Shown one piece after another: positions 10,883 to 61,106 of a DNA stretch of 64,000 bases (position 1 is its first letter; the number at the start of each line of letters is the position of its first letter). Location of the stretch: NCBI GenBank assembly GCA_041671485.1, contig JBAZBL010000006.1:6539-70538 (forward strand), in the 5' to 3' direction. The stretch is from Minisyncoccota bacterium. GTDB taxonomy: Bacteria > Patescibacteriota > Minisyncoccia > Phycocordibacterales > PALSA-1337. A program made the position numbers and the translations under genes. The notes beneath the pieces were generated by a model. The model was given only the letters and a program-made list of their open reading frames with translations, was not told the DNA's origin and did not search any database.

Positions 10883-12757
10883 ATGAAGTATTTGATTTAT
10901 AGACAATTGAGCAATGATGAGCAAAAAAAATTGAATTCATTTTCACCACTTATTGCACATCTACTATTTCATAGGGGCGTTATAGATAGTGTTTCAGCAG
11001 ATAAATTTCTTAATCCTGATTATGATAGGGATATACATGATCCAACACTATTGAAAGATGCCGATAAATCAGCTGATAGGATCATTCAAGGTATAAAAAA
11101 AGATGAAAAGATAGCTATTTATGCTGACTATGATGCAGATGGTATACCAGGAGCAGCTATTTGGCATGATTTCTTCGACAGGATTGGTTTTAAAAACTTT
11201 ATTATTTATATTCCACATAGACATGATGAGGGTTTTGGCATGAATGTAGAAGCAGTCGAACAGTTGAATGATGCTGAAGTGAAGTTAATAATTACTGTTG
11301 ATTGTGGTATCTCTGATGTATGTCCTGTGGCAAAAGCAAATGAATTGGGTATAGATGTTATCATCACGGATCACCATGAATCTCCTAGTAAAATGCCAAA
11401 AGCTTTTGCAATAGTTGATCATAAACAAGATGATTGCAATTATCCTGATAAAAATCTATGTGGAGCAGGAATTGCATATAAATTGATACAATTGATCCTT
11501 TCAAAAGAGCGCTTTGGTCTCAAAGATGGACTAGAGAAATGGTTATTGGATCTTGTTGGTATGGCAACTCTCTCTGATATGGTTCCTCTCACTGGTGAAA
11601 ATAGGGTATTTGCTCATTATGGTCTTACTGTATTGAAGAAGGGCCACAGGAAAGGTCTTAGAAGATTGTTTGAAAAGCTTCGTATAGAACAGAGACATAT
11701 AAATGAAGATGATATTAACTTCATGATTACACCACGTATCAATGCGGCCTCGCGCATGGGTATGCCAAGGGACGCTTTCAATCTATTGATTGCAAAGAAT
11801 GATGAAGAAGCAGATAAGTATGCGGAGCATTTGGATCATATAAATAGCAAGAGGAAAACGGCGGTGGCAGTACTAGTAAAAGAAGTCAAGAAAATTATTC
11901 ATGAAAGGTTTCTTGATGTCTCATTATTAAAGACGGATGAGAATGGGCAGGACACTACCTCCTTCGGCGACGAATCGCACCTCCGCCAACTGGCGGATAA
12001 GTCGCCTCAGGAGGTGTGTCCTGCCCATTCCCACAAGGGTTTAATTTTATCAAATACAAAATTACCAAACGTAATTGTTCTAGGTAATCCAAATTGGAGA
12101 CCATCACTTTTGGGTTTGGTTGCAAATAGTTGTGTACAAGAATTTGATAGGCCTGTTTTCCTCTGGGGAAGAGATGGAGACAATACTATCAAGGGCTCCT
12201 GCCGATCGCGAGGTAATACAAGTGTTGTCGAGATTATGAAGGCTGTGCCAGAAGGAATAATATCGCAATTTGGTGGACATAAGAATTCTGGAGGATTTGC
12301 TGTATTTGATGATAAGATATATTTCTTGGACAAATATCTTAATGAGGCATTTGAATTACTTATAAAGAAGTCAAAAGAACAAGAAAATGTTGATATATTG
12401 GAGAAATATATTGATGCAGAATTATCGATTGATGAAGTCAATATAGATCTGTACAATGAAATTGCCAAATTGGCGCCATTTGGTTCTGGCAATCATAAAC
12501 CAGCCTTCTTATTTAGGAAGATAAAGCCTGTATCAATAAAGCGCTTTGGTAAAGGCAATGAACATATAAGAATGGATTTTAGTAGATCAAATAGGACAAA
12601 AATTTCTGCTATTTCATTCTTTGGAATAGAGAATGAATGGAATAATATAGTTCGAGAAAATGAATCAATAGATCTTGTGGCTTCACTCGAGAAATCTTGG
12701 TATAGGAATAGTCCGGAGTTGCGATTAAAAGTAATTGATGTTTTCATTAATCCATGA
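10883..12757 (+). CDS. recJ: Single-stranded-DNA-specific exonuclease RecJ
   Basis: 624 aa. DHH motifs IYADYDADGI and ITDHHE, plus a DHHA1 domain. Confidence 0.9.
   Translation: MKYLIYRQLSNDEQKKLNSFSPLIAHLLFHRGVIDSVSADKFLNPDYDRDIHDPTLLKDADKSADRIIQGIKKDEKIAIYADYDADGIPGAAIWHDFFDRIGFKNFIIYIPHRHDEGFGMNVEAVEQLNDAEVKLIITVDCGISDVCPVAKANELGIDVIITDHHESPSKMPKAFAIVDHKQDDCNYPDKNLCGAGIAYKLIQLILSKERFGLKDGLEKWLLDLVGMATLSDMVPLTGENRVFAHYGLTVLKKGHRKGLRRLFEKLRIEQRHINEDDINFMITPRINAASRMGMPRDAFNLLIAKNDEEADKYAEHLDHINSKRKTAVAVLVKEVKKIIHERFLDVSLLKTDENGQDTTSFGDESHLRQLADKSPQEVCPAHSHKGLILSNTKLPNVIVLGNPNWRPSLLGLVANSCVQEFDRPVFLWGRDGDNTIKGSCRSRGNTSVVEIMKAVPEGIISQFGGHKNSGGFAVFDDKIYFLDKYLNEAFELLIKKSKEQENVDILEKYIDAELSIDEVNIDLYNEIAKLAPFGSGNHKPAFLFRKIKPVSIKRFGKGNEHIRMDFSRSNRTKISAISFFGIENEWNNIVRENESIDLVASLEKSWYRNSPELRLKVIDVFINP
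11941..12030. repeat. 90-nt GC-rich palindromic element inserted in frame inside recJ (adds 30 codons)
   Basis: Perfect 15-nt inverted arms gaatgggcaggacac / gtgtcctgcccattc. Nested inner stems cctcc..ggagg, ggcgac..gtcgcc and ccgcc aact ggcgg. Much GC-richer than the surrounding coding sequence. Confidence 0.6.
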
Positions 12758-13296: not shown

Positions 13297-13443
13297 CCCG
13301 AGGCCCGCCTTCGGCGGGGTAGGCCTCGGGAGTGGATTTTATCATTTCTTCAGCAGAATTTTATCAGGATTTTATCTCATTGTGATATCGTGCAGGTTGT
13401 GGAGGTTTCGTTGCGCAGGTCTACCCTGCGCAACGAAACCTCC
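13297..13443 (+). repeat. Composite repeat element, copy 1: GC hairpin (ggtaggcctcgg type), 42-nt AT-rich motif with three ATTTTATC repeats, TGaTAT box, then a REP hairpin
   Basis: Same layout at 17004-17157 and 42798-42916 (reverse strand). The 42-nt motif lies at 13337-13378 and the REP unit cgcaggtctaccctgcg at 13414-13430. The element ends 10 nt before the comEC start. Confidence 0.7.
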
Positions 13444-18984: not shown

Positions 18985-19094
18985 GGATGTATGGCTGTTG
19001 CGGAGGTGCGAGGTCGCACCTCCACAAAAAGAGTAGCAAATTTTGGACGATTGTGATATATTCTGACACAGAGATAGAGAAAGGGATAGTAATT

Positions 19095-30505: not shown

Positions 30506-30514
30506 ATATCTGGT

Positions 30515-30713
30515 CCCCGAGAATAATTGTCATTCTGTGAATCGAGGACTGTTTGAGCGACTATAAATTGCTTGATAAAATGCGTATGTTGTGGGAATTG
30601 CTACGATACTAAGGCATTTCTAATGCCGAAGTATCGAGCAATTCAATAGCATTTTATCTAGCAATTTAAGGAGCGAGTTCCGCAGATTCACAGAATGACA
30701 ATTATTCTCGGGG
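30515..30713. repeat. 199-nt element bounded by perfect 29-nt inverted repeats, with nested inner hairpins (MITE-like or structured RNA)
   Basis: ccccgagaataattgtcattctgtgaatc (30515-30543) and its reverse complement (30685-30713). Inner stem gaattgctacgatact / agtatcgagcaattc encloses ggcatt tcta atgcc. Fills the whole tyrS/comF convergent spacer. Confidence 0.6.
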
Positions 30714-30719
30714 ACATTA

Positions 30720-42101: not shown

Positions 42102-42179
42102 TACCTAGAGACTTTCTTTATGCCCCATACGTGGTAAATCATCAAAACCTAGTTTCGGCTAGGTTTTGTGTTTGGGGGA

Positions 42180-42234
42180 GTTTACGCAGGGTAGACCTGC
42201 GGGGGAATCCCCCGCAGGTCTACCCTGCGTAAAC
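42180..42234. repeat. REP doublet (REPIN-like) next to the RAYT gene
   Basis: gtttacgcagggtagacctgcg ggggaatcccc cgcaggtctaccctgcgtaaac, a 55-nt perfect palindrome. Preceded by the pilA terminator aaaacctagtttcggctaggtttt. Confidence 0.8.
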
Positions 42235-42792
42235 TCTAATAATACTACCTTGAGGTCTATTTTCTCCCAAATAGTCTTTATAACTAGAGAATTCGTATTT
42301 CTTTGAGTATTCTATTGCTTGAGCCAAATATTCAGGTTTGGCAGTTTTCATGAGATCTGGTTCATCTATACTATACGGATTCAAGTGTATGTATTGGATC
42401 AAATATCTCAAATATTCATCATTATCAATATGTTTTTCTTTGTATTGTCCTTGAAATATTGTTCCAGAGTGGTCATATTTTCTGTTGTAATACATTGCGT
42501 ATGATGTGCACAGTTTACGAATAAATCTAGTAATACCACCATCAGTTTTTTCTTCTACTCCTATATGAAAATGGTTTGGCATAAGACAATAGGCAAATAT
42601 GTCGACAATTATATCTCGATTATATTGAAACATGTCTAATGGCTTTATACTACGCAGGTCTACCCTGCGTGTATCATTTGCTGTGTAGAGTAGAGTTATA
42701 AATCTTTCATAATCACCCCTATCTAAAAATATTGGTGCTTTATGGGCTCCACGATTGTATATATGATATTTTTCTCCTAATATATGTGACAT
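42220..42792 (-). CDS. IS200/IS605-family Y1 (HUH) transposase of the REP-associated type (RAYT, TnpA_REP-like)
   Basis: 190 aa from ATG 42792 (MSHILGEKYHIYNRG...). HUH motif NHFHIG, catalytic Tyr region YLRYLIQYIHLNP. Flanked by REP hairpins. The ORF-track start at 42828 translates a REP. Confidence 0.8.
   Translation of the reverse strand: MSHILGEKYHIYNRGAHKAPIFLDRGDYERFITLLYTANDTRRVDLRSIKPLDMFQYNRDIIVDIFAYCLMPNHFHIGVEEKTDGGITRFIRKLCTSYAMYYNRKYDHSGTIFQGQYKEKHIDNDEYLRYLIQYIHLNPYSIDEPDLMKTAKPEYLAQAIEYSKKYEFSSYKDYLGENRPQGSIIRVYAG
42653..42669. repeat. Single REP unit inside the RAYT coding region, in frame
   Basis: cgcaggtctaccctgcg encodes part of ANDTRRVDLRSIKP between the first conserved block and the HUH motif. 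Confidence 0.6.
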
Positions 42793-42797
42793 TAAAT

Positions 42798-42916
42798 TTA
42801 CGCAGGGTAGACCTGCGTAAACAACCATATCACACCGAGATAAAATCCTGATAAAATTTTGCTGAAGAAATGATAAAGTTTTTATCCGAGGGTAGGCCTC
42901 GGAGGCCTACCCTCGG
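42798..42916 (-). repeat. Composite repeat element, copy 3 (reverse strand): GC hairpin ccgagggtaggcctc g gaggcctaccctcgg, 42-nt ATTTTATC motif, TGaTATGGT box, REP; directly upstream of the RAYT start
   Basis: 42-nt motif at 42837-42878 (reverse strand). REP cgcagggtagacctgcg at 42801-42817. 31-nt perfect GC palindrome at 42886-42916. Confidence 0.7.
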
Positions 42917-49083: not shown

Positions 49084-49158
49084 TGTGTCATCCTCGCGAA
49101 AGCGAGGATCCACAATGTTATGAAAGACATGGATCCTCGCTTTCGCGAGGATGACACA
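49084..49158. repeat. 75-nt palindromic double-hairpin element filling the gatC-gatA spacer
   Basis: gtgtcatcctcgcgaaagcgaggatcca ... tggatcctcgctttcgcgaggatgacac. Each arm contains its own cctcgc gaaa gcgagg hairpin. Confidence 0.6.
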
Positions 49159-55139: not shown

Positions 55140-55275
55140 GCAAAAAGCCCATCACGGGTAGAGTCCGAAGACTCTCATACAAGTTTCCCTGTATGGCGGA
55201 TTACGCGACCCCATGATGGGTTCTTTATGCGTAATCCGACTTCCTTTCGCCATGCCCCAAAAAGAGGTTTAGGCT
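55140..55275. other. About 135-nt densely structured non-coding region (candidate ncRNA or replication/recombination site)
   Basis: Nested stems gagtc cgaa gactc, ggattacgc...gcgtaatcc, cccatgatggg and atggcg...cgccat. Lies between the divergent cassette and ORF 55377. Confidence 0.3.
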
Positions 55276-56325: not shown

Positions 56326-58158
56326 ATGCAAAAATCAGATGTCAATTTATTAGAGATAGCGTTACAGTATTTAAGTTTTGGTCTATCTATAATACCTGTA
56401 AACGGAAAACAGCCGTGCGTAAAGTGGACAGAATACCAAACAAGGAAACCGACTATAGCAGAAATAACTGAATGGTTTTCACATCCGGATGTGACTGGAA
56501 TAGGGATAATTACAGGTTTGATTTCAGGGATTGGCGTTCTGGATATTGATAATGGATCTGACACATCAAGTCTTCAGTTACCGCCTACAGTTGCCGTTAA
56601 AACTGGAGGTGATGGTCAACATCACTACTATAGGTATCCCTTCAATACGGTCATCAGAAATACAACTGGATTACTACCACATATAGATTTCAGAGGTGAC
56701 GGGGGTTATGTTGTCGCGCCACCATCGATGCACCAATCTGGAAATAAATATGAATGGTTGTTGGACTTTAAGCGCGAGGATTTGGCTGATATTCCTGATT
56801 GGCTTCTAACCCGCTTGGTTGGTGAAAAGAGTCATCCGAACATCACGGATATATTAAGTGGCGTCTCTCAAGGGACTAGAAATGAGTCGGCGACAGTGAT
56901 TGTTGGGAAACTGATTCATCATTTGCCATCCTACGAATGGGAAACTTTAGCATGGCCTTACCTTAGATGGTGGAATGATCGAAATCAACCACCACTAGGT
57001 ATGAAGGAGCTTCGTGTTACATATGAATCTATTATTGGCAGAGAAAATAAGAAAGAGCAAAAGCAAGAACAGACACTAAAGATATTACAGTGGAAAGATT
57101 TTGATCAAGTGAAATTTCCCGAAGCGAAGTGGTTAATAAAAGACCTAATACCGACAGGAACTGTCACTATTATTGCCGCCCCATCGGGGGAAAAGAAAAC
57201 ATGGGTGGGTATGGAGATGTCTCGTTGTATAGCTCTCGGTATACCCTTTATCAACCACTTCGAAACGAAAAAGGGTAATGTATTATATATAGAGCAAGAA
57301 ACATCCCAACGCCTAATTCAAGATCGAGGTAGAAAGTTAGGATTCAATCTTGTGAATGATGGTATTTTCCTTCTTAGCCAAGATTCACTTAATTTGAATG
57401 AAGATCGTTCGATACAGTTGTTACATGAGTTTATCGAGAGAAATCATATAGAGTTTGTGGTTATCGATACGCTTAGAAGTGTTGCGGGTGGGATAAAAGA
57501 AGAAAAAGCAGAGGAAATAAGGATGTTCTTTAATCGTCTAAAGCCGTGGAAGGATAAGGGTATAAGCTATTTAGTCCTTGATCACTGTAGAAAGCCTGCA
57601 AGATTTGAGAGTACACAGGTGCCTAAAAAGGAGCAACTACTTGGAAGCCAAGACAAAACAGCCTCCGTTGAGGTGCTTCACATGATAAGAAGTGAGGAAA
57701 AAAGTAATGAGATAATGTTCTACCCAAAGAAATCTAAAGTTGCAAGGGAAATATCCCCGTTCAAAATTTTGATGTTAGATGAAATCACCGAACACGGTGA
57801 GGTTGTGAGGTTGACATATGGCGGAGAGATTGAAGAAAAAAAGTTGAAAGCAGAGGAGGCGGAAGGCATGATAAAAGCATATCTACTGGAATCCAATGAG
57901 CATAGAACATCTAAAGAGATTCAGGAGGCTCTGGACGGAGAAGCTGGGAAGACTGCCATCGAAGATGCGCTTAAAAAAATGCGAGAAGACAAGGAGAATA
58001 TTGTCCATCATGAAAAAGTTGGTCAAGCGTATAAATATTGGATACCAAAAGATAAACCAGATGAGCTTGATATATTTGATGAGGTTCCTAAGTCTGATTT
58101 AGGAAGTCCGCAGACGCTGCTATTAGAAGCTTCAACTGAGCCACAAATTGCTGCCTAG
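56326..58158 (+). CDS. Bifunctional primase-polymerase (Prim-Pol) N-domain fused to a P-loop RecA/DnaB-like ATPase (mobile-element replication protein)
   Basis: Prim-Pol motifs GIGIITGL..GIGVLDIDNGSD and DFRGDGGYVVAPPS. Walker A AAPSGEKKTW. AAA_25-like region VVIDTL. Confidence 0.8.
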   Translation: MQKSDVNLLEIALQYLSFGLSIIPVNGKQPCVKWTEYQTRKPTIAEITEWFSHPDVTGIGIITGLISGIGVLDIDNGSDTSSLQLPPTVAVKTGGDGQHHYYRYPFNTVIRNTTGLLPHIDFRGDGGYVVAPPSMHQSGNKYEWLLDFKREDLADIPDWLLTRLVGEKSHPNITDILSGVSQGTRNESATVIVGKLIHHLPSYEWETLAWPYLRWWNDRNQPPLGMKELRVTYESIIGRENKKEQKQEQTLKILQWKDFDQVKFPEAKWLIKDLIPTGTVTIIAAPSGEKKTWVGMEMSRCIALGIPFINHFETKKGNVLYIEQETSQRLIQDRGRKLGFNLVNDGIFLLSQDSLNLNEDRSIQLLHEFIERNHIEFVVIDTLRSVAGGIKEEKAEEIRMFFNRLKPWKDKGISYLVLDHCRKPARFESTQVPKKEQLLGSQDKTASVEVLHMIRSEEKSNEIMFYPKKSKVAREISPFKILMLDEITEHGEVVRLTYGGEIEEKKLKAEEAEGMIKAYLLESNEHRTSKEIQEALDGEAGKTAIEDALKKMREDKENIVHHEKVGQAYKYWIPKDKPDELDIFDEVPKSDLGSPQTLLLEASTEPQIAA

Positions 58159-58309
58159 TTTCCTAGTACATATATATGTTATGATTACAATGCTACACAA
58201 GGGATTAGGGACGTTATTTATTTTAATTGAGTCCAAAAGCGGGGTAACAGAACTCTCTTGTGTAGCAACTTGAGACGTCCACTGTTACCCCACTTTTGTA
58301 ATTAAAAAT

Positions 58310-59851
58310 ATGAAAAAAGGAATTATATATGTTCGAGTATCATCGAACGAACAAGTACAAGGTACAAGTCTCGATAATCAAGAGAGGGCTTGTTTGGAAT
58401 ATGCGGAGAAAAATAATATTGAGGTGGTAAAGATTTATATTGAGAAAGGGGAATCGGCAACTGCCGCCAATCGTACCGAATTTCTGAAGGCACTGGAGTA
58501 TTGTCGAATACATAGTAAAGAGGTGGAGTCTTTCATTGTTTGGAAGATCGATCGCTTCGCCCGTAATACCACAGACCATTTTGCAGTCCGCGCTAAACTA
58601 ACTCAGTACGGTGTTACTCTCCAATCAGTTACTGAACCAATCACAAATGATCCTAGCGGTAAACTGATGGAGACACTTCTTGCTGGATATGCAGAATTTG
58701 AAAACGATATACGTAAGCAGAGGTGTATTGGTGGCATGCAAGGCAGATTACGTGAGGGAATCTGGTGCTGGTCGCCTCCAATAGGGTATACAAACTCTAT
58801 GAAGATGAAAGACAGAAAGAAAACCTTACCGGATGTTCCGGATGAAGAAAGATTCTACCTGATTCAAAAGGGATTAAAACTATATAAAGCCGGCAATCAC
58901 ACTATTACAGCTCTTGCCCAAGAGAGTAGTAAATGGGGACTTAAAACTCGAACTGGTAGGCCAATGAGAAAACAGTTATGGGATACTATTCTCACCAATA
59001 AATTCTATGCTGGTATCCTCGTCGATCCGTGGAGCCTTGAAGAACAACAAGGACAACATAAGCCTATGATTACTTTAGAAGATTTCAATCACATCCAGAT
59101 GATAAAAAAGAATTTGTCCAACAACGCCACCGCTTCACGACTCTCTACCAATCCCGATTTTCCACTTCGCCGTTTTGTGTTATGTGAATGTCATCATCTC
59201 TATACCGCCTCGTGGAGTACCGGCCGAAGTAAAAAATATGCCTCTTACCACTGTCACGGCAAGCAATGCGTACATTTTGGTCACACTGTTGCCAAAGATA
59301 CGCTCGAAGATGAATTCTATAAGCTTTTACAAAAGGTAGCTCCACAGACTAAGTTCCTTAAACTGTTTGAACGGATCGTTATAGAGACCTATAAAAACCA
59401 ACATACTCTTGTTAAGCAGGAAAAGGATCACTATGAGCGAAATCTATCCAAGTTGGAAGCACGTAAGAAAGAATTGATGGAAATGAGAATAAGCCGTGAG
59501 ATTTCAAAGGAAGACTATAAAGATCTTAAAGATGCTTTGGATAATCAGATTACCAGTCTCCATATCTCAAGAAATGAAGCTCAGATAGAAGAATTTGATA
59601 TGGAGATCGCTATAGCTCACACTACGAAGCTGATCGGTGATGTTGCCAATCAATGGAAGCTTATGAGTCCGATTCAGAAGCAAAAACTTCAGAAATTGGT
59701 GCTACCACAAGGGATCACCTACCAAAAATCGACCGGTACATTTGGAACCGCCATTCTGTCGCCTGTATTCAAGCTTAATGAGACATTTACGGCTATGCCG
59801 TCCGAACTTGTTGCGGGGGTCGGAATCGAACCGACAATCTTCAGGTTATGA
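58310..59851 (+). CDS. Large serine recombinase (phage-integrase-type resolvase/invertase family)
   Basis: Catalytic N-domain IYVRVSSNEQ...DRFARN. Recombinase domain. Zinc ribbon CECHH...YHCHGKQC. Coiled-coil C-terminus. The last 41 nt overlap tRNA-fMet on the opposite strand. Confidence 0.85.
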   Translation: MKKGIIYVRVSSNEQVQGTSLDNQERACLEYAEKNNIEVVKIYIEKGESATAANRTEFLKALEYCRIHSKEVESFIVWKIDRFARNTTDHFAVRAKLTQYGVTLQSVTEPITNDPSGKLMETLLAGYAEFENDIRKQRCIGGMQGRLREGIWCWSPPIGYTNSMKMKDRKKTLPDVPDEERFYLIQKGLKLYKAGNHTITALAQESSKWGLKTRTGRPMRKQLWDTILTNKFYAGILVDPWSLEEQQGQHKPMITLEDFNHIQMIKKNLSNNATASRLSTNPDFPLRRFVLCECHHLYTASWSTGRSKKYASYHCHGKQCVHFGHTVAKDTLEDEFYKLLQKVAPQTKFLKLFERIVIETYKNQHTLVKQEKDHYERNLSKLEARKKELMEMRISREISKEDYKDLKDALDNQITSLHISRNEAQIEEFDMEIAIAHTTKLIGDVANQWKLMSPIQKQKLQKLVLPQGITYQKSTGTFGTAILSPVFKLNETFTAMPSELVAGVGIEPTIFRL

Positions 59852-59882
59852 GCCTGACGAGCTACCGTTACTCTACCCCGCG
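59811..59882 (-). tRNA. Initiator tRNA-fMet (anticodon CAT)
   Basis: Cloverleaf with a C1·A72 mismatch and an A11:U24 pair, both initiator hallmarks. Anticodon loop CUCAUAA. T-arm GTCGG TTCGATT CCGAC. Close to E. coli tRNA-fMet. Confidence 0.85.
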
Positions 59883-59984
59883 ATGTTCTAACTATTTTGC
59901 CACAATTGATGTAGTTGCGCAAGTGAATAAATTTAGATATTGTATAGCTTGAGTATTAGACATGGTTTTTGCTCGATATTCAAT

Positions 59985-60058
59985 GCCGGCGTAGCTCAGG
60001 TAGTTAGAGCATAGCACTCATAAAGCTAAGGTCGCAGGTGCAAGTCCTGCCGCCGGCA
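59985..60058 (+). tRNA. tRNA with anticodon CAT (elongator Met or lysidine-modified Ile2)
   Basis: Acceptor GCCGGCG/CGCCGGC. Anticodon loop CUCAUAA. One A·A mismatch at 31-39. Confidence 0.7.
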
Positions 60059-60185
60059 CAATAGTTTTCGTCAGTATCTTGACTTTCGTAGAATATTTTT
60101 GCTAGAGTATCTTTAATACTTGCTTGCGACCGATGGAGTTGCGCCCAGATCGGTCTATCGCAGAAGCGATGGTGAGCACTATGAC

Positions 60186-60214
60186 AAGCCCCTTACGGGG
60201 CTTGTGCGCTTTTT
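60186..60214 (+). terminator. Rho-independent terminator after the CAT tRNA
   Basis: aagcccc ttac ggggctt followed by gtgcgctttttg. Confidence 0.5.
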
Positions 60215-60281
60215 GTTGATTTTATCCATTACACTAAAGAAGTGTTTGTGACCATTATTCAATTGTGGTATTTTTCTAGTA

Positions 60282-60965
60282 ATGCCAATATACAAAAAGG
60301 TTAATAAAGATTTTTTCAAAGTATGGACTCCAAAGATGTCATATATACTGGGATTCTTTGCTGCTGACGGTTATATGACTCTAAACAAAAGAGGTGCTTA
60401 TTTTTGGAATATTCAAATTACAGACAAAAAATTATTAGAGGATATCAGACGAACAATTGGATCCAATCATAAAATCAGTGTTCGTATTGGAAAAGTGAAT
60501 GAAAGACCTTTGTATCGTTTACAGATTGGTAGCAAGAAAATGTACTATGATCTATTGGCTTTAGGATTTAATCAGGGAAAAACAAAGAGTTTGGCTGTTC
60601 CAAATGTTCCAGCAATATATTTTAGAGATTTTGTCAGAGGTTATTTTGATGGTGATGGTAATGTTTGGAGCGGACATATTCATCGCAATAGACCTAGTAA
60701 TACATTGATTATTACTGTGGTATTTACTTCCAGTTCATTTCAATTTTTATCGGAAATAAGGCGAAGATTACGATTGTTTATGATATTTAAAGGAGTTTTA
60801 AGTAAGGGGAAAGGTAATTATTATAGGTTAGTTTACAGTATTCGTGACTCTTTGAAATTACACGATTTCATGTATAATCATCCTATACTTGCAAAGGATG
60901 ACATTTTTCTTCAAAGGAAGAGAATTATATTCGAGAAGTACTTAAAGATACGAATGCGGCCGTAG
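60282..60965 (+). CDS. LAGLIDADG homing endonuclease (double-motif)
   Basis: Two LAGLIDADG motifs, LGFFAADGYM and GYFDGDGNV. The TAG stop overlaps the first 10 nt of tRNA-Asp. Confidence 0.85.
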   Translation: MPIYKKVNKDFFKVWTPKMSYILGFFAADGYMTLNKRGAYFWNIQITDKKLLEDIRRTIGSNHKISVRIGKVNERPLYRLQIGSKKMYYDLLALGFNQGKTKSLAVPNVPAIYFRDFVRGYFDGDGNVWSGHIHRNRPSNTLIITVVFTSSSFQFLSEIRRRLRLFMIFKGVLSKGKGNYYRLVYSIRDSLKLHDFMYNHPILAKDDIFLQRKRIIFEKYLKIRMRP

Positions 60966-61029
60966 CGAAACTGGTTATCGCACCGCCCTGTCACGGCGGG
61001 GATTGCGGGTTCGAGTCCCGTCGGCCGCG
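60956..61029 (+). tRNA. tRNA-Asp (GTC)
   Basis: Anticodon loop CUGUCAC. T-arm GCGGGTTCGAGTCCCGT identical to E. coli tRNA-Asp. Discriminator G. Confidence 0.9.
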
Positions 61030-61106
61030 CATAGGAAATCACTCAACATTCTGTTTTATTACGTCCACCAAAAGAGTGCTATAATTCACCATAGAAAGAG
61101 GTTCAT

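Follow-up and report, generated by a model that had tools for sequence, protein, structure and literature searches.

The subject of this report is a 90-nucleotide (nt) GC-rich palindrome that lies in frame inside recJ of a Minisyncoccota bacterium (assembly GCA_041671485.1, contig JBAZBL010000006.1); the whole stretch of 64,000 nt that was analysed is referred to here as the window. The open reading frame (ORF) that hosts the palindrome runs from 10883 to 12757 on the forward strand, codes for 624 amino acids and was assigned to recJ from the ORF list, its Pfam domains and its match in the PDB. Three domains are recognized, DHH (residues 76-228), DHHA1 (396-490) and RecJ_OB (510-619), all of them outside the insert, in which there is no Pfam match. 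The best PDB match is 8y30 (E 1.9e-70), and an identical protein from a Candidatus Paceibacterota metagenome-assembled genome (MAG) is annotated as RecJ by both NCBI and JGI. The palindrome occupies positions 11941 to 12030 of the same strand, around residues 353-383, and has a GC content of 61%, compared with ~37% for the window and the genome.

Structure of the element

The 90 nt read, in order, GAATGGGCAGGACAC-T-ACCTCCT-TC-GGCGAC-GAATCGCACC-TCCGCC-AACT-GGCGGA-TAA-GTCGCC-TC-AGGAGGT-GTGTCCTGCCCATTC. The element thus has terminal inverted repeats, its two ends GAATGGGCAGGACAC (11941-11955) and GTGTCCTGCCCATTC (12016-12030) being perfect 15-nt inverted arms with 60 nt between them, and neither arm occurs again in the 64-kb window. 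All 90 nt fold into a single nested hairpin of 34 Watson-Crick pairs (15+7+6+6). The arms form the outer stem of 15 bp; after a 1-nt bulge at 11956, a second stem, found in both the minimum free energy and the centroid structure, pairs ACCTCCT (11957-11963) with AGGAGGT (12009-12015), and a third pairs GGCGAC (11966-11971) with GTCGCC (12001-12006). Inside the third stem the structure is asymmetric, with an internal loop of 10 nt on one side and 3 nt on the other and a separate apical hairpin, TCCGCC-AACT-GGCGGA (11982-11997), that has a 6-bp stem and a 4-nt loop.

As RNA, the element folds at -65.3 kcal/mol, against -35.0 ± 3.6 for dinucleotide shuffles (z -8.4), and none of 200 shuffles was as stable; the DNA fold gives a z of -7.5. 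Folding of sliding 100-nt segments across the window ranks it with the most stable (-64.9 kcal/mol, mean -17.2, sd 6.4), with a lower value seen only for a doublet of repetitive extragenic palindromic (REP) sequences at ~42121-42280 (-76.2). In the same scan it is the sole strong hairpin situated well within a well-supported ORF.

With its first nucleotide at the third position of codon 353, the element spans 30 codons and has no stop in the recJ frame (three of the six frames are open); the insert encodes the stretch NGQDTTSFGDESHLR. An earlier note, made from the letters of the window and its ORFs, had described an in-frame, GC-rich 90-nt palindrome with perfect 15-nt arms around a 60-nt core of nested stems, and the sequence, the 34-pair fold and the open frame bear this description out. 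Its count of 30 codons also stands, but the element is offset by two bases from the peptide that it quoted, and its placement of the element between a DHH/DHHA1 catalytic core and the C-terminal domain was mistaken: the element lies between the DHH part (76-228 plus the helix at 307-343) and DHHA1.

Other delimitations and functions of the hairpin were considered and set aside. Longer, imperfect arms of 30 nt (11926-12045, 80% complementary) were rejected, as the extension is not kept in the related locus L003, described below, where the arms measure 16 nt. An intrinsic terminator was also rejected, the prediction having called no site. A search of Rfam, introns included, gave no family at its gathering score; the best scores were generic hairpin matches (21 bits for a threshold of 200, and 19 for one of 65).

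The insert in the RecJ protein

Alignment with MAFFT of the 120 best orthologues showed that the linker in which the element lies, F343 to V397, has a median length of 6 residues and is exactly 6 residues long in 66 of them, with a range of 2 to 80. It measures 53 residues here and 44 in the closest relative, P0002, and about 118 of the 120 orthologues are without the element. Alignments to RecJ structures in the PDB behave in the same way, running to residue 337 and restarting at 397 with a gap at the insert. Judged by these alignments, the element is an insertion relative to RecJ orthologues, as the earlier note had expected. The hairpin supplies 30 of the ~47 extra residues; the others belong to AT-rich linker, which is not the same in the two lineages with the element. 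On the 5' side, just outside the hairpin, it includes a 27-nt segment (11913-11939, LDVSLLKTD) that is missing from the closest relative; on the 3' side, 13 fast-evolving codons (12032-12070) precede the first strand of DHHA1.

An AlphaFold model of RecJ, built on a 68-sequence alignment, has a mean predicted local distance difference test (pLDDT) score of 87.7 and a predicted template modelling score of 0.87. The insert, bounded in the model by the helix 307-343 and the strand 398-401, is covered by residues with pLDDT below 50 (350-353 and 355-391, ~40 in the region), and a separate short stretch at 500-506 also falls below this value. Because confidence is lost there while the rest of the model is confident, the insert is predicted to occupy a disordered surface linker outside the elements of the catalytic core; the earlier note had suggested modelling whether it falls in a surface loop.

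Conservation between two lineages

The element is found, identical, in three assemblies: the window and the loci L001 and L002, which are ENA and Logan assemblies of other samples. Records for this lineage are ENA ERZ27249449, SRR18595301 and SRR6484324. It is also present at the same place in P0002, whose amino acid identity is 89% (Logan assemblies SRR22216451 and SRR22216446, loci L003 and L004), with 95.6% identity over the element. Its recovery in independent ENA and Logan assemblies from four samples establishes that it is real and no assembly error. This argues against the artefact half of one alternative that we hold to be extremely unlikely, namely that the segment is either a product of assembly or missing from the mature product through removal from the mRNA or ribosome bypass of the T4 gene 60 type. 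A long, stable hairpin is indeed the type of structure used in ribosome bypassing or RNase III processing. However, there is no stop at a take-off site or at the 5' edge, there are no matching take-off and landing codons, and no intron or other RNA family was matched; since the recJ frame is open and continuous, no removal is needed.

Comparison of the window with L003 shows which property of the element has been kept. The two elements differ at 4 of 90 nt, all transitions; each of them replaces an amino acid (G>S, E>K, Q>R and P>L) and none is synonymous, so that the peptide differs at 4 of its 30 residues. Two of the substitutions are unpaired (11972, and 11988 in the apical loop), and the remaining two are both partners of a single pair in the third stem, 11966/12006, where G-C of the window is replaced by A-T in L003, a compensatory change. 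Both arms of the outer stem and both sides of the second stem are unchanged, and all 34 pairs are Watson-Crick in the sequences of both lineages, with no G-U. Because the shuffle control of the covariation tool carries no information with only two sequences, random transitions were simulated instead. All pairs remained Watson-Crick in 0.6% of trials with 4 changes and in 0.006% with 9 changes, the gene average; all remained standard, G-U allowed, in 16% and 2.3%, respectively.

The surroundings have evolved differently. For the parts of recJ outside the linker, the window and L003 show 170 differences in 1704 nt, the changed codons being 101 synonymous and 44 nonsynonymous. In the 13 codons directly downstream, 16 of 39 nt are different (41%; Fisher p = 7e-7 against the element), and, of the two sequences, only the window has the 27-nt segment directly upstream. 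Since the pairs are all kept and every substitution is nonsynonymous, next to a linker that has diverged and gained or lost 27 nt, it is, on this sequence comparison, the hairpin that is conserved and not the encoded peptide, while the neighbouring linker decays.

This pattern bears on two explanations that assign a function to the insert. One is that the 30 residues are an adaptive addition that equips the surface of RecJ with something new, for instance a loop to bind a partner, with the palindromy left over from its origin. The insert has been kept in frame over ~10% nucleotide divergence and is on the surface beside DHHA1, but four nonsynonymous substitutions out of four, some of them non-conservative (E>K, P>L), would arise by chance with a probability of ~0.008 if, as in the rest of the gene, 30% of changed codons were nonsynonymous (0.30^4). 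The peptide is moreover predicted to be disordered and has neither a Pfam match nor a protein relative, and we find this explanation very unlikely.

The other is that the hairpin is a selected cis-acting RNA or DNA structure with an effect on the expression of recJ, possibly as a site for RNase III or for mRNA stability, or as a ribosome pause at the DHH/DHHA1 boundary, the peptide being incidental. The 34 maintained pairs with their compensatory change, in a linker that is 41% diverged on one side and with every substitution altering the peptide, are what such selection would leave, and a fold of about -65 kcal/mol stands exactly at the domain boundary. Nevertheless, the great majority of orthologues manage without the element, it has neither an Rfam family at threshold nor a terminator-like tail, and its downstream T-rich run has not been conserved in L003. 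The unrelated hairpins found at this and other sites in other lineages, presented next, look opportunistic rather than like a dedicated regulator. We therefore consider a cis-acting role improbable, though less so than an adaptive peptide.

Hairpins in other recJ genes and elsewhere in the genome

Related genomes have in-frame hairpins, unrelated to this one, both in the recJ linker and in other genes. The recJ gene of locus L019 (L019:3001-4986; P0004, 661 aa), with a linker of 80 aa, carries two different long GC-rich hairpins in tandem and in frame at this place; the GC content of this insertion is 56% (45% for the gene), and it folds at -122 kcal/mol over 273 nt. In L018 (L018:3001-5106; P0083, 701 aa) a small REP, GTCATTCCCGCGAAAGCGGGAATCC, lies in frame in the same linker and is translated as VIPAKAGIQ. 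Two variant copies are found elsewhere in that gene (PAKAGV and, in the opposite orientation, RLHGND), and an identical copy of GTCATTCCCGCGAAAGCGGGAATCC is at L018:6093, inside a neighbouring, enlarged RNase H gene (262 aa, compared with 163 aa in our genome). The recJ of L021 (L021:1001-2821; P0069) contains a hairpin of 66% GC in another RecJ loop, while the insertion in L022 is not a hairpin. The insertions of L019 and L021 are independent hairpin insertions within the RecJ family. The earlier note had held that its view of the element would be overturned if relatives with no such repeats had a comparable segment of unrelated sequence at this position. Several orthologues do have unrelated extra sequence there, but the two whose DNA was inspected, P0004 and P0083, have GC-rich hairpin or REP insertions.

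Our genome has a further example. Its pyrG gene (CTP synthase, 605 aa; L023:11826-13643) contains a 78-nt GC-rich hairpin at L023:12832-12909, ~2.2-2.3 kb past the end of the window, which folds at -48.6 kcal/mol (z -4.6) and lies within an insertion of ~53 aa relative to solved CTP synthases.

The window also holds a REP family of the extragenic kind. The sequence GCAGGGTAGACCTGC is present in 13 copies, against 0.04 expected, most of them as inverted doublets that form stems of 20-32 bp between genes (the region 42178-42828, 13415, 17112/17138, 35306/35329, 44253/44278 and 48719/48742). Copies of it flank an ORF on the reverse strand (42220-42828) with a Pfam Y1_Tnp domain, IS200-like (34.4 bits for a cutoff of 23, E 2.6e-8), and so enzymes that act on single-stranded hairpins are present in the genome. 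A Y1_Tnp gene with flanking REPs is the arrangement described for REP-associated tyrosine transposases (RAYTs), and from its sequence the locus resembles a RAYT/REPIN system, here in a Paceibacterota genome. The GCAGGGTAGACCTGC REPs that flank Y1_Tnp show no match to the recJ element, and the opinion of the earlier note that it is unrelated to the CGCAGG REPs was confirmed in that no sequence match was found.

An intergenic hairpin at 49084-49158 is an inverted doublet of GTCATCCTCGCGAAAGCGAGGATCCA, with the flanks and GAAA loop of the L018 REP GTCATTCCCGCGAAAGCGGGAATCCA and with compensating differences in the stem; the likeness of GTCATCCTCGCGAAAGCGAGGATCCA and GTCATTCCCGCGAAAGCGGGAATCCA suggests, at the level of sequence, a REP superfamily common to Paceibacterota. 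Between convergent genes at 30513-30715 there is a palindromic element of 203 nt (-113 kcal/mol) whose 31-nt arms are perfect and which has further repeats nested inside; it may be a transposable element of the miniature inverted-repeat kind (a MITE), of yet another family. A small hairpin, GCGGAGGTGCGAGGTCGCACCTCCAC, stands at the junction of two ORFs (18990-19035), with GGAGGTG on both arms and a 12-nt match to the recJ element (E ~1). The earlier note had linked the recJ element through a shared GGAGGTG to the hairpins at 19001-19023 and 13401-13443; the motif is present on both arms at the former, but the latter has GGAGGTT. Kinship on this basis was rejected, the 7-mer being enriched in the window (12 occurrences, 3.5 expected), mostly in coding sequence, and too short, with a longest shared stretch at E ~1.

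Two features of the window are of other kinds. An Rfam LOOT RNA motif was found on the reverse strand at 55160-55275 (72.7 bits, gathering score 46.4). The region 56326-61030 contains a Prim-Pol/AAA_25 primase-helicase, a serine resolvase and a weak LAGLIDADG ORF beside a cluster of tRNA genes (two Met, Asp and two Thr), and is probably an integrated mobile element.

Origin of the element

We regard it as fairly probable that the recJ element is a tolerated, translated GC-rich hairpin element, of the kind of the REPs, the MITEs or the Rickettsia palindromic elements (RPEs), in a linker that tolerates changes in length, in which the hairpin is kept and the peptide is a passenger. Under this reading, a GC-rich hairpin DNA element would have landed in the variable linker between the inter-domain helix of RecJ and DHHA1, in a common ancestor of at least two Paceibacterota lineages. 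Being divisible by three in length and free of stops in the recJ frame, it would be read through, and RecJ would gain, and tolerate, a disordered surface loop of ~30 residues. Its persistence could be that of a selfish element of REP/MITE type whose working form is the single-stranded hairpin, or it could reflect constraint on the structure or self-correction of the palindrome by intrastrand templating. We infer that the insert is translated, that it has a mobile-element origin and that it does not affect RecJ activity. In favour of this reading are the insertion relative to orthologues, the disorder predicted for the loop, a constraint that shows in the pairing and not in the peptide, the foreign GC content, the recurrence of in-frame hairpins in other recJ genes and in pyrG, the presence of a Y1_Tnp ORF and the precedent of the RPEs.

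Several results weigh against this reading, among them those of the search for further copies. The sequence covered from this genome was the window and ~16 kb of flanking sequence obtained through L023 and L026 (~80 kb together, by our estimate about a tenth of a genome of the size typical for this group), and no second copy was found in the window or the additional ~16 kb. Within the window and the retrieved loci, blastn-short, nhmmer and a covariance model detected no other copy, the best local match elsewhere in the window being 12 nt long and at chance level (E ~1). Scans for the arm pattern GGGCAGGACAC-N40-70-GTGTCCTGCCC in 185,579 GTDB representative genomes, JGI metagenomes and IMG/VR returned nothing related; this negative is weak, because the scans missed the window's own locus and the source genome is thus absent from those collections. 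What they returned were unrelated hairpins, in a conserved structure of Desulfurococcales archaea, one Lachnospiraceae contig and assorted metagenome contigs. The archaeal cases (L006-L009 and L014, Desulfurococcales or Acidilobaceae MAGs) are a conserved 82-91-nt GC-rich hairpin common to several crenarchaeal genomes, caught by chance by the 11-nt arm pattern, and may be a structured RNA unrelated to the recJ element.

Protein searches gave a similar result. A HMMER search with the 42-aa peptide against 1.84 billion representative proteins returned only two low-complexity repeat proteins and no relative; word-index searches with a composite six-frame peptide and with the 104-aa linker segment were uninformative, as they missed even P0001, which phmmer detects at E 7e-11. 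A distant-mode search of the INPHARED phages had no match to the element. Neither the ~80 kb nor the collection scans contained a related autonomous element or a parent insertion sequence (IS) with the same ends, and no target-site duplication is seen at the flanks (in the window GGATGA|element|CCACAA, in L003 GTTCTG|element|CCGTCC). To the earlier note the insert looked like a miniature inverted-repeat element that entered in frame: the in-frame insertion holds, but no repeated mobile family was recovered in the sequence searched.

The pyrG hairpin does not provide the missing relative. The two have CCTCC-TC-GGCGACGAA in common, but the local alignment is borderline (p = 0.05) and, under a covariance model built from the recJ element, the pyrG hairpin scores no better than noise (9.6 bits, E 2.9). 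For these reasons a common family of the two was rejected, and we treat them as the same kind of element and not the same family. The conservation evidence has limits of its own: the divergence of the element (4.4%) is not significantly below the gene-wide 10% (p = 0.10), and, as only two lineages carry the element, the evidence of covariation comes from one compensatory pair.

The same absences support the alternative that the palindrome arose de novo, by template switching or fold-back repair in an indel-tolerant linker, and never belonged to a mobile family. In quasi-palindrome template-switch mutagenesis, the Ripley model, perfect arms and a two-sided 'compensatory' change would be produced as single templated events and without selection, so that the arms and the 11966/12006 pair would be the outcome of self-correction. 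No other copy in any of the sequences searched and the lack of a target-site duplication speak for it, and strict Watson-Crick pairing without G-U fits a templated process at the DNA level. The linker is a hotspot for indels, as its spread of lengths among orthologues indicates, and the hairpin insertions of the other orthologues and of pyrG are each unique in sequence. On the other hand, a local inverted duplication should share the local composition, and the element is far richer in GC than the sequence around it; the model leaves this foreign composition and the origin of the 90 nt unexplained. The asymmetric interior, with its uneven internal loop and apical hairpin, is unlike a simple fold-back copy, and the absence of copies carries little weight when the source genome is missing from the scanned collections. 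We judge an origin de novo unlikely, although it is the most likely of the alternatives.

Comparison with known systems

REP and REPIN elements are mobilised by RAYTs, which are IS200-like Y1 transposases (PMC2817692, PMC3116915 and PMC3733652). The recJ element is likewise a GC-rich hairpin, in an AT-rich genome, and with its long hairpin of ~90 nt has the overall form of a REPIN; a true REP family with a REP-flanked Y1_Tnp is present in the window, and the REPs of a related lineage lie in frame in recJ. In contrast to them, it is intragenic and not extragenic, is a single locus in the sequence searched and has no similarity to GCAGGGTAGACCTGC, and neither of its ends shows a GTAG or CGTC tag. 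It does not qualify as a REP or a REPIN.

With bacterial MITEs such as Correia, ERIC and BOX (reviewed in PMC10969869) it has in common perfect terminal inverted repeats of 15 nt, small size, a non-coding origin and the possibility of an in-frame fusion upon insertion in a gene. It differs in that no target-site duplication, parent IS or other copies were found, and in that the whole unit is one nested hairpin instead of repeats around an unrelated core. Full-text searches found no literature linking Patescibacteria or the candidate phyla radiation (CPR) with REPs, RAYTs, MITEs or in-frame palindromes, and the REP-derived peptide motifs PAKAGIQ and SRLRGND did not occur in the literature searched.

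A wider proposal can be made, tentatively and with somewhat less assurance than our reading of the single case: Paceibacterota genomes, within the CPR, may hold diverse and undescribed GC-rich hairpin elements that colonise genes in frame, as RPEs do, but outside Rickettsiales. The hairpin would be the conserved unit, and certain loops, such as the RecJ helix-DHHA1 linker and a loop in the GATase domain of CTP synthase, would serve as recurrent landing pads. Less likely still, the hairpin in recJ may also have taken on a role as an mRNA structure at the boundary of the domains. CPR bacteria, like Rickettsia, have tiny genomes, and their proteins have many unexplained insertions; GC-rich, low-complexity inserts in these proteins may then be hairpin elements and not functional domains, with consequences for annotation, structure prediction and phylogenetic alignment. 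The contrast of a conserved hairpin with a free-running peptide and a fast-decaying linker also makes this locus a small natural test of how intragenic palindromes are kept up, whether by selection on structure, self-templated correction or mobility. The single case is of moderate interest, and would be of more if the recurrent hairpin pattern holds across the phylum.

RPEs are palindromic repeats of ~150 bp, inserted in numerous unrelated genes without loss of the frame and at places that the protein fold can accommodate (Ogata et al. 2000, as reviewed in PMC10969869). The recJ element resembles them in being a palindromic hairpin of ~100 nt in a housekeeping ORF, with a continuous frame and a fold-compatible surface peptide, in a host with a small genome. 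However, RPEs are defined repeat families, present in tens of copies in a genome, and the peptide that they encode is conserved, whereas the recJ element has one known locus in two lineages and its peptide is not conserved; the phylum is also a different one, Patescibacteria/Paceibacterota, and the likeness is drawn on form and placement and not on sequence. Were our reading correct, the picture drawn from Rickettsia, of selfish palindromes written into proteins where they make new surface loops, would extend to the CPR. By this analogy, RPEs are the closest known phenomenon, and the recJ element can be described as RPE-like in the other features tested, while for membership in a multi-copy family, a defining feature of RPEs, the ~80 kb of its genome that were searched gave no support.

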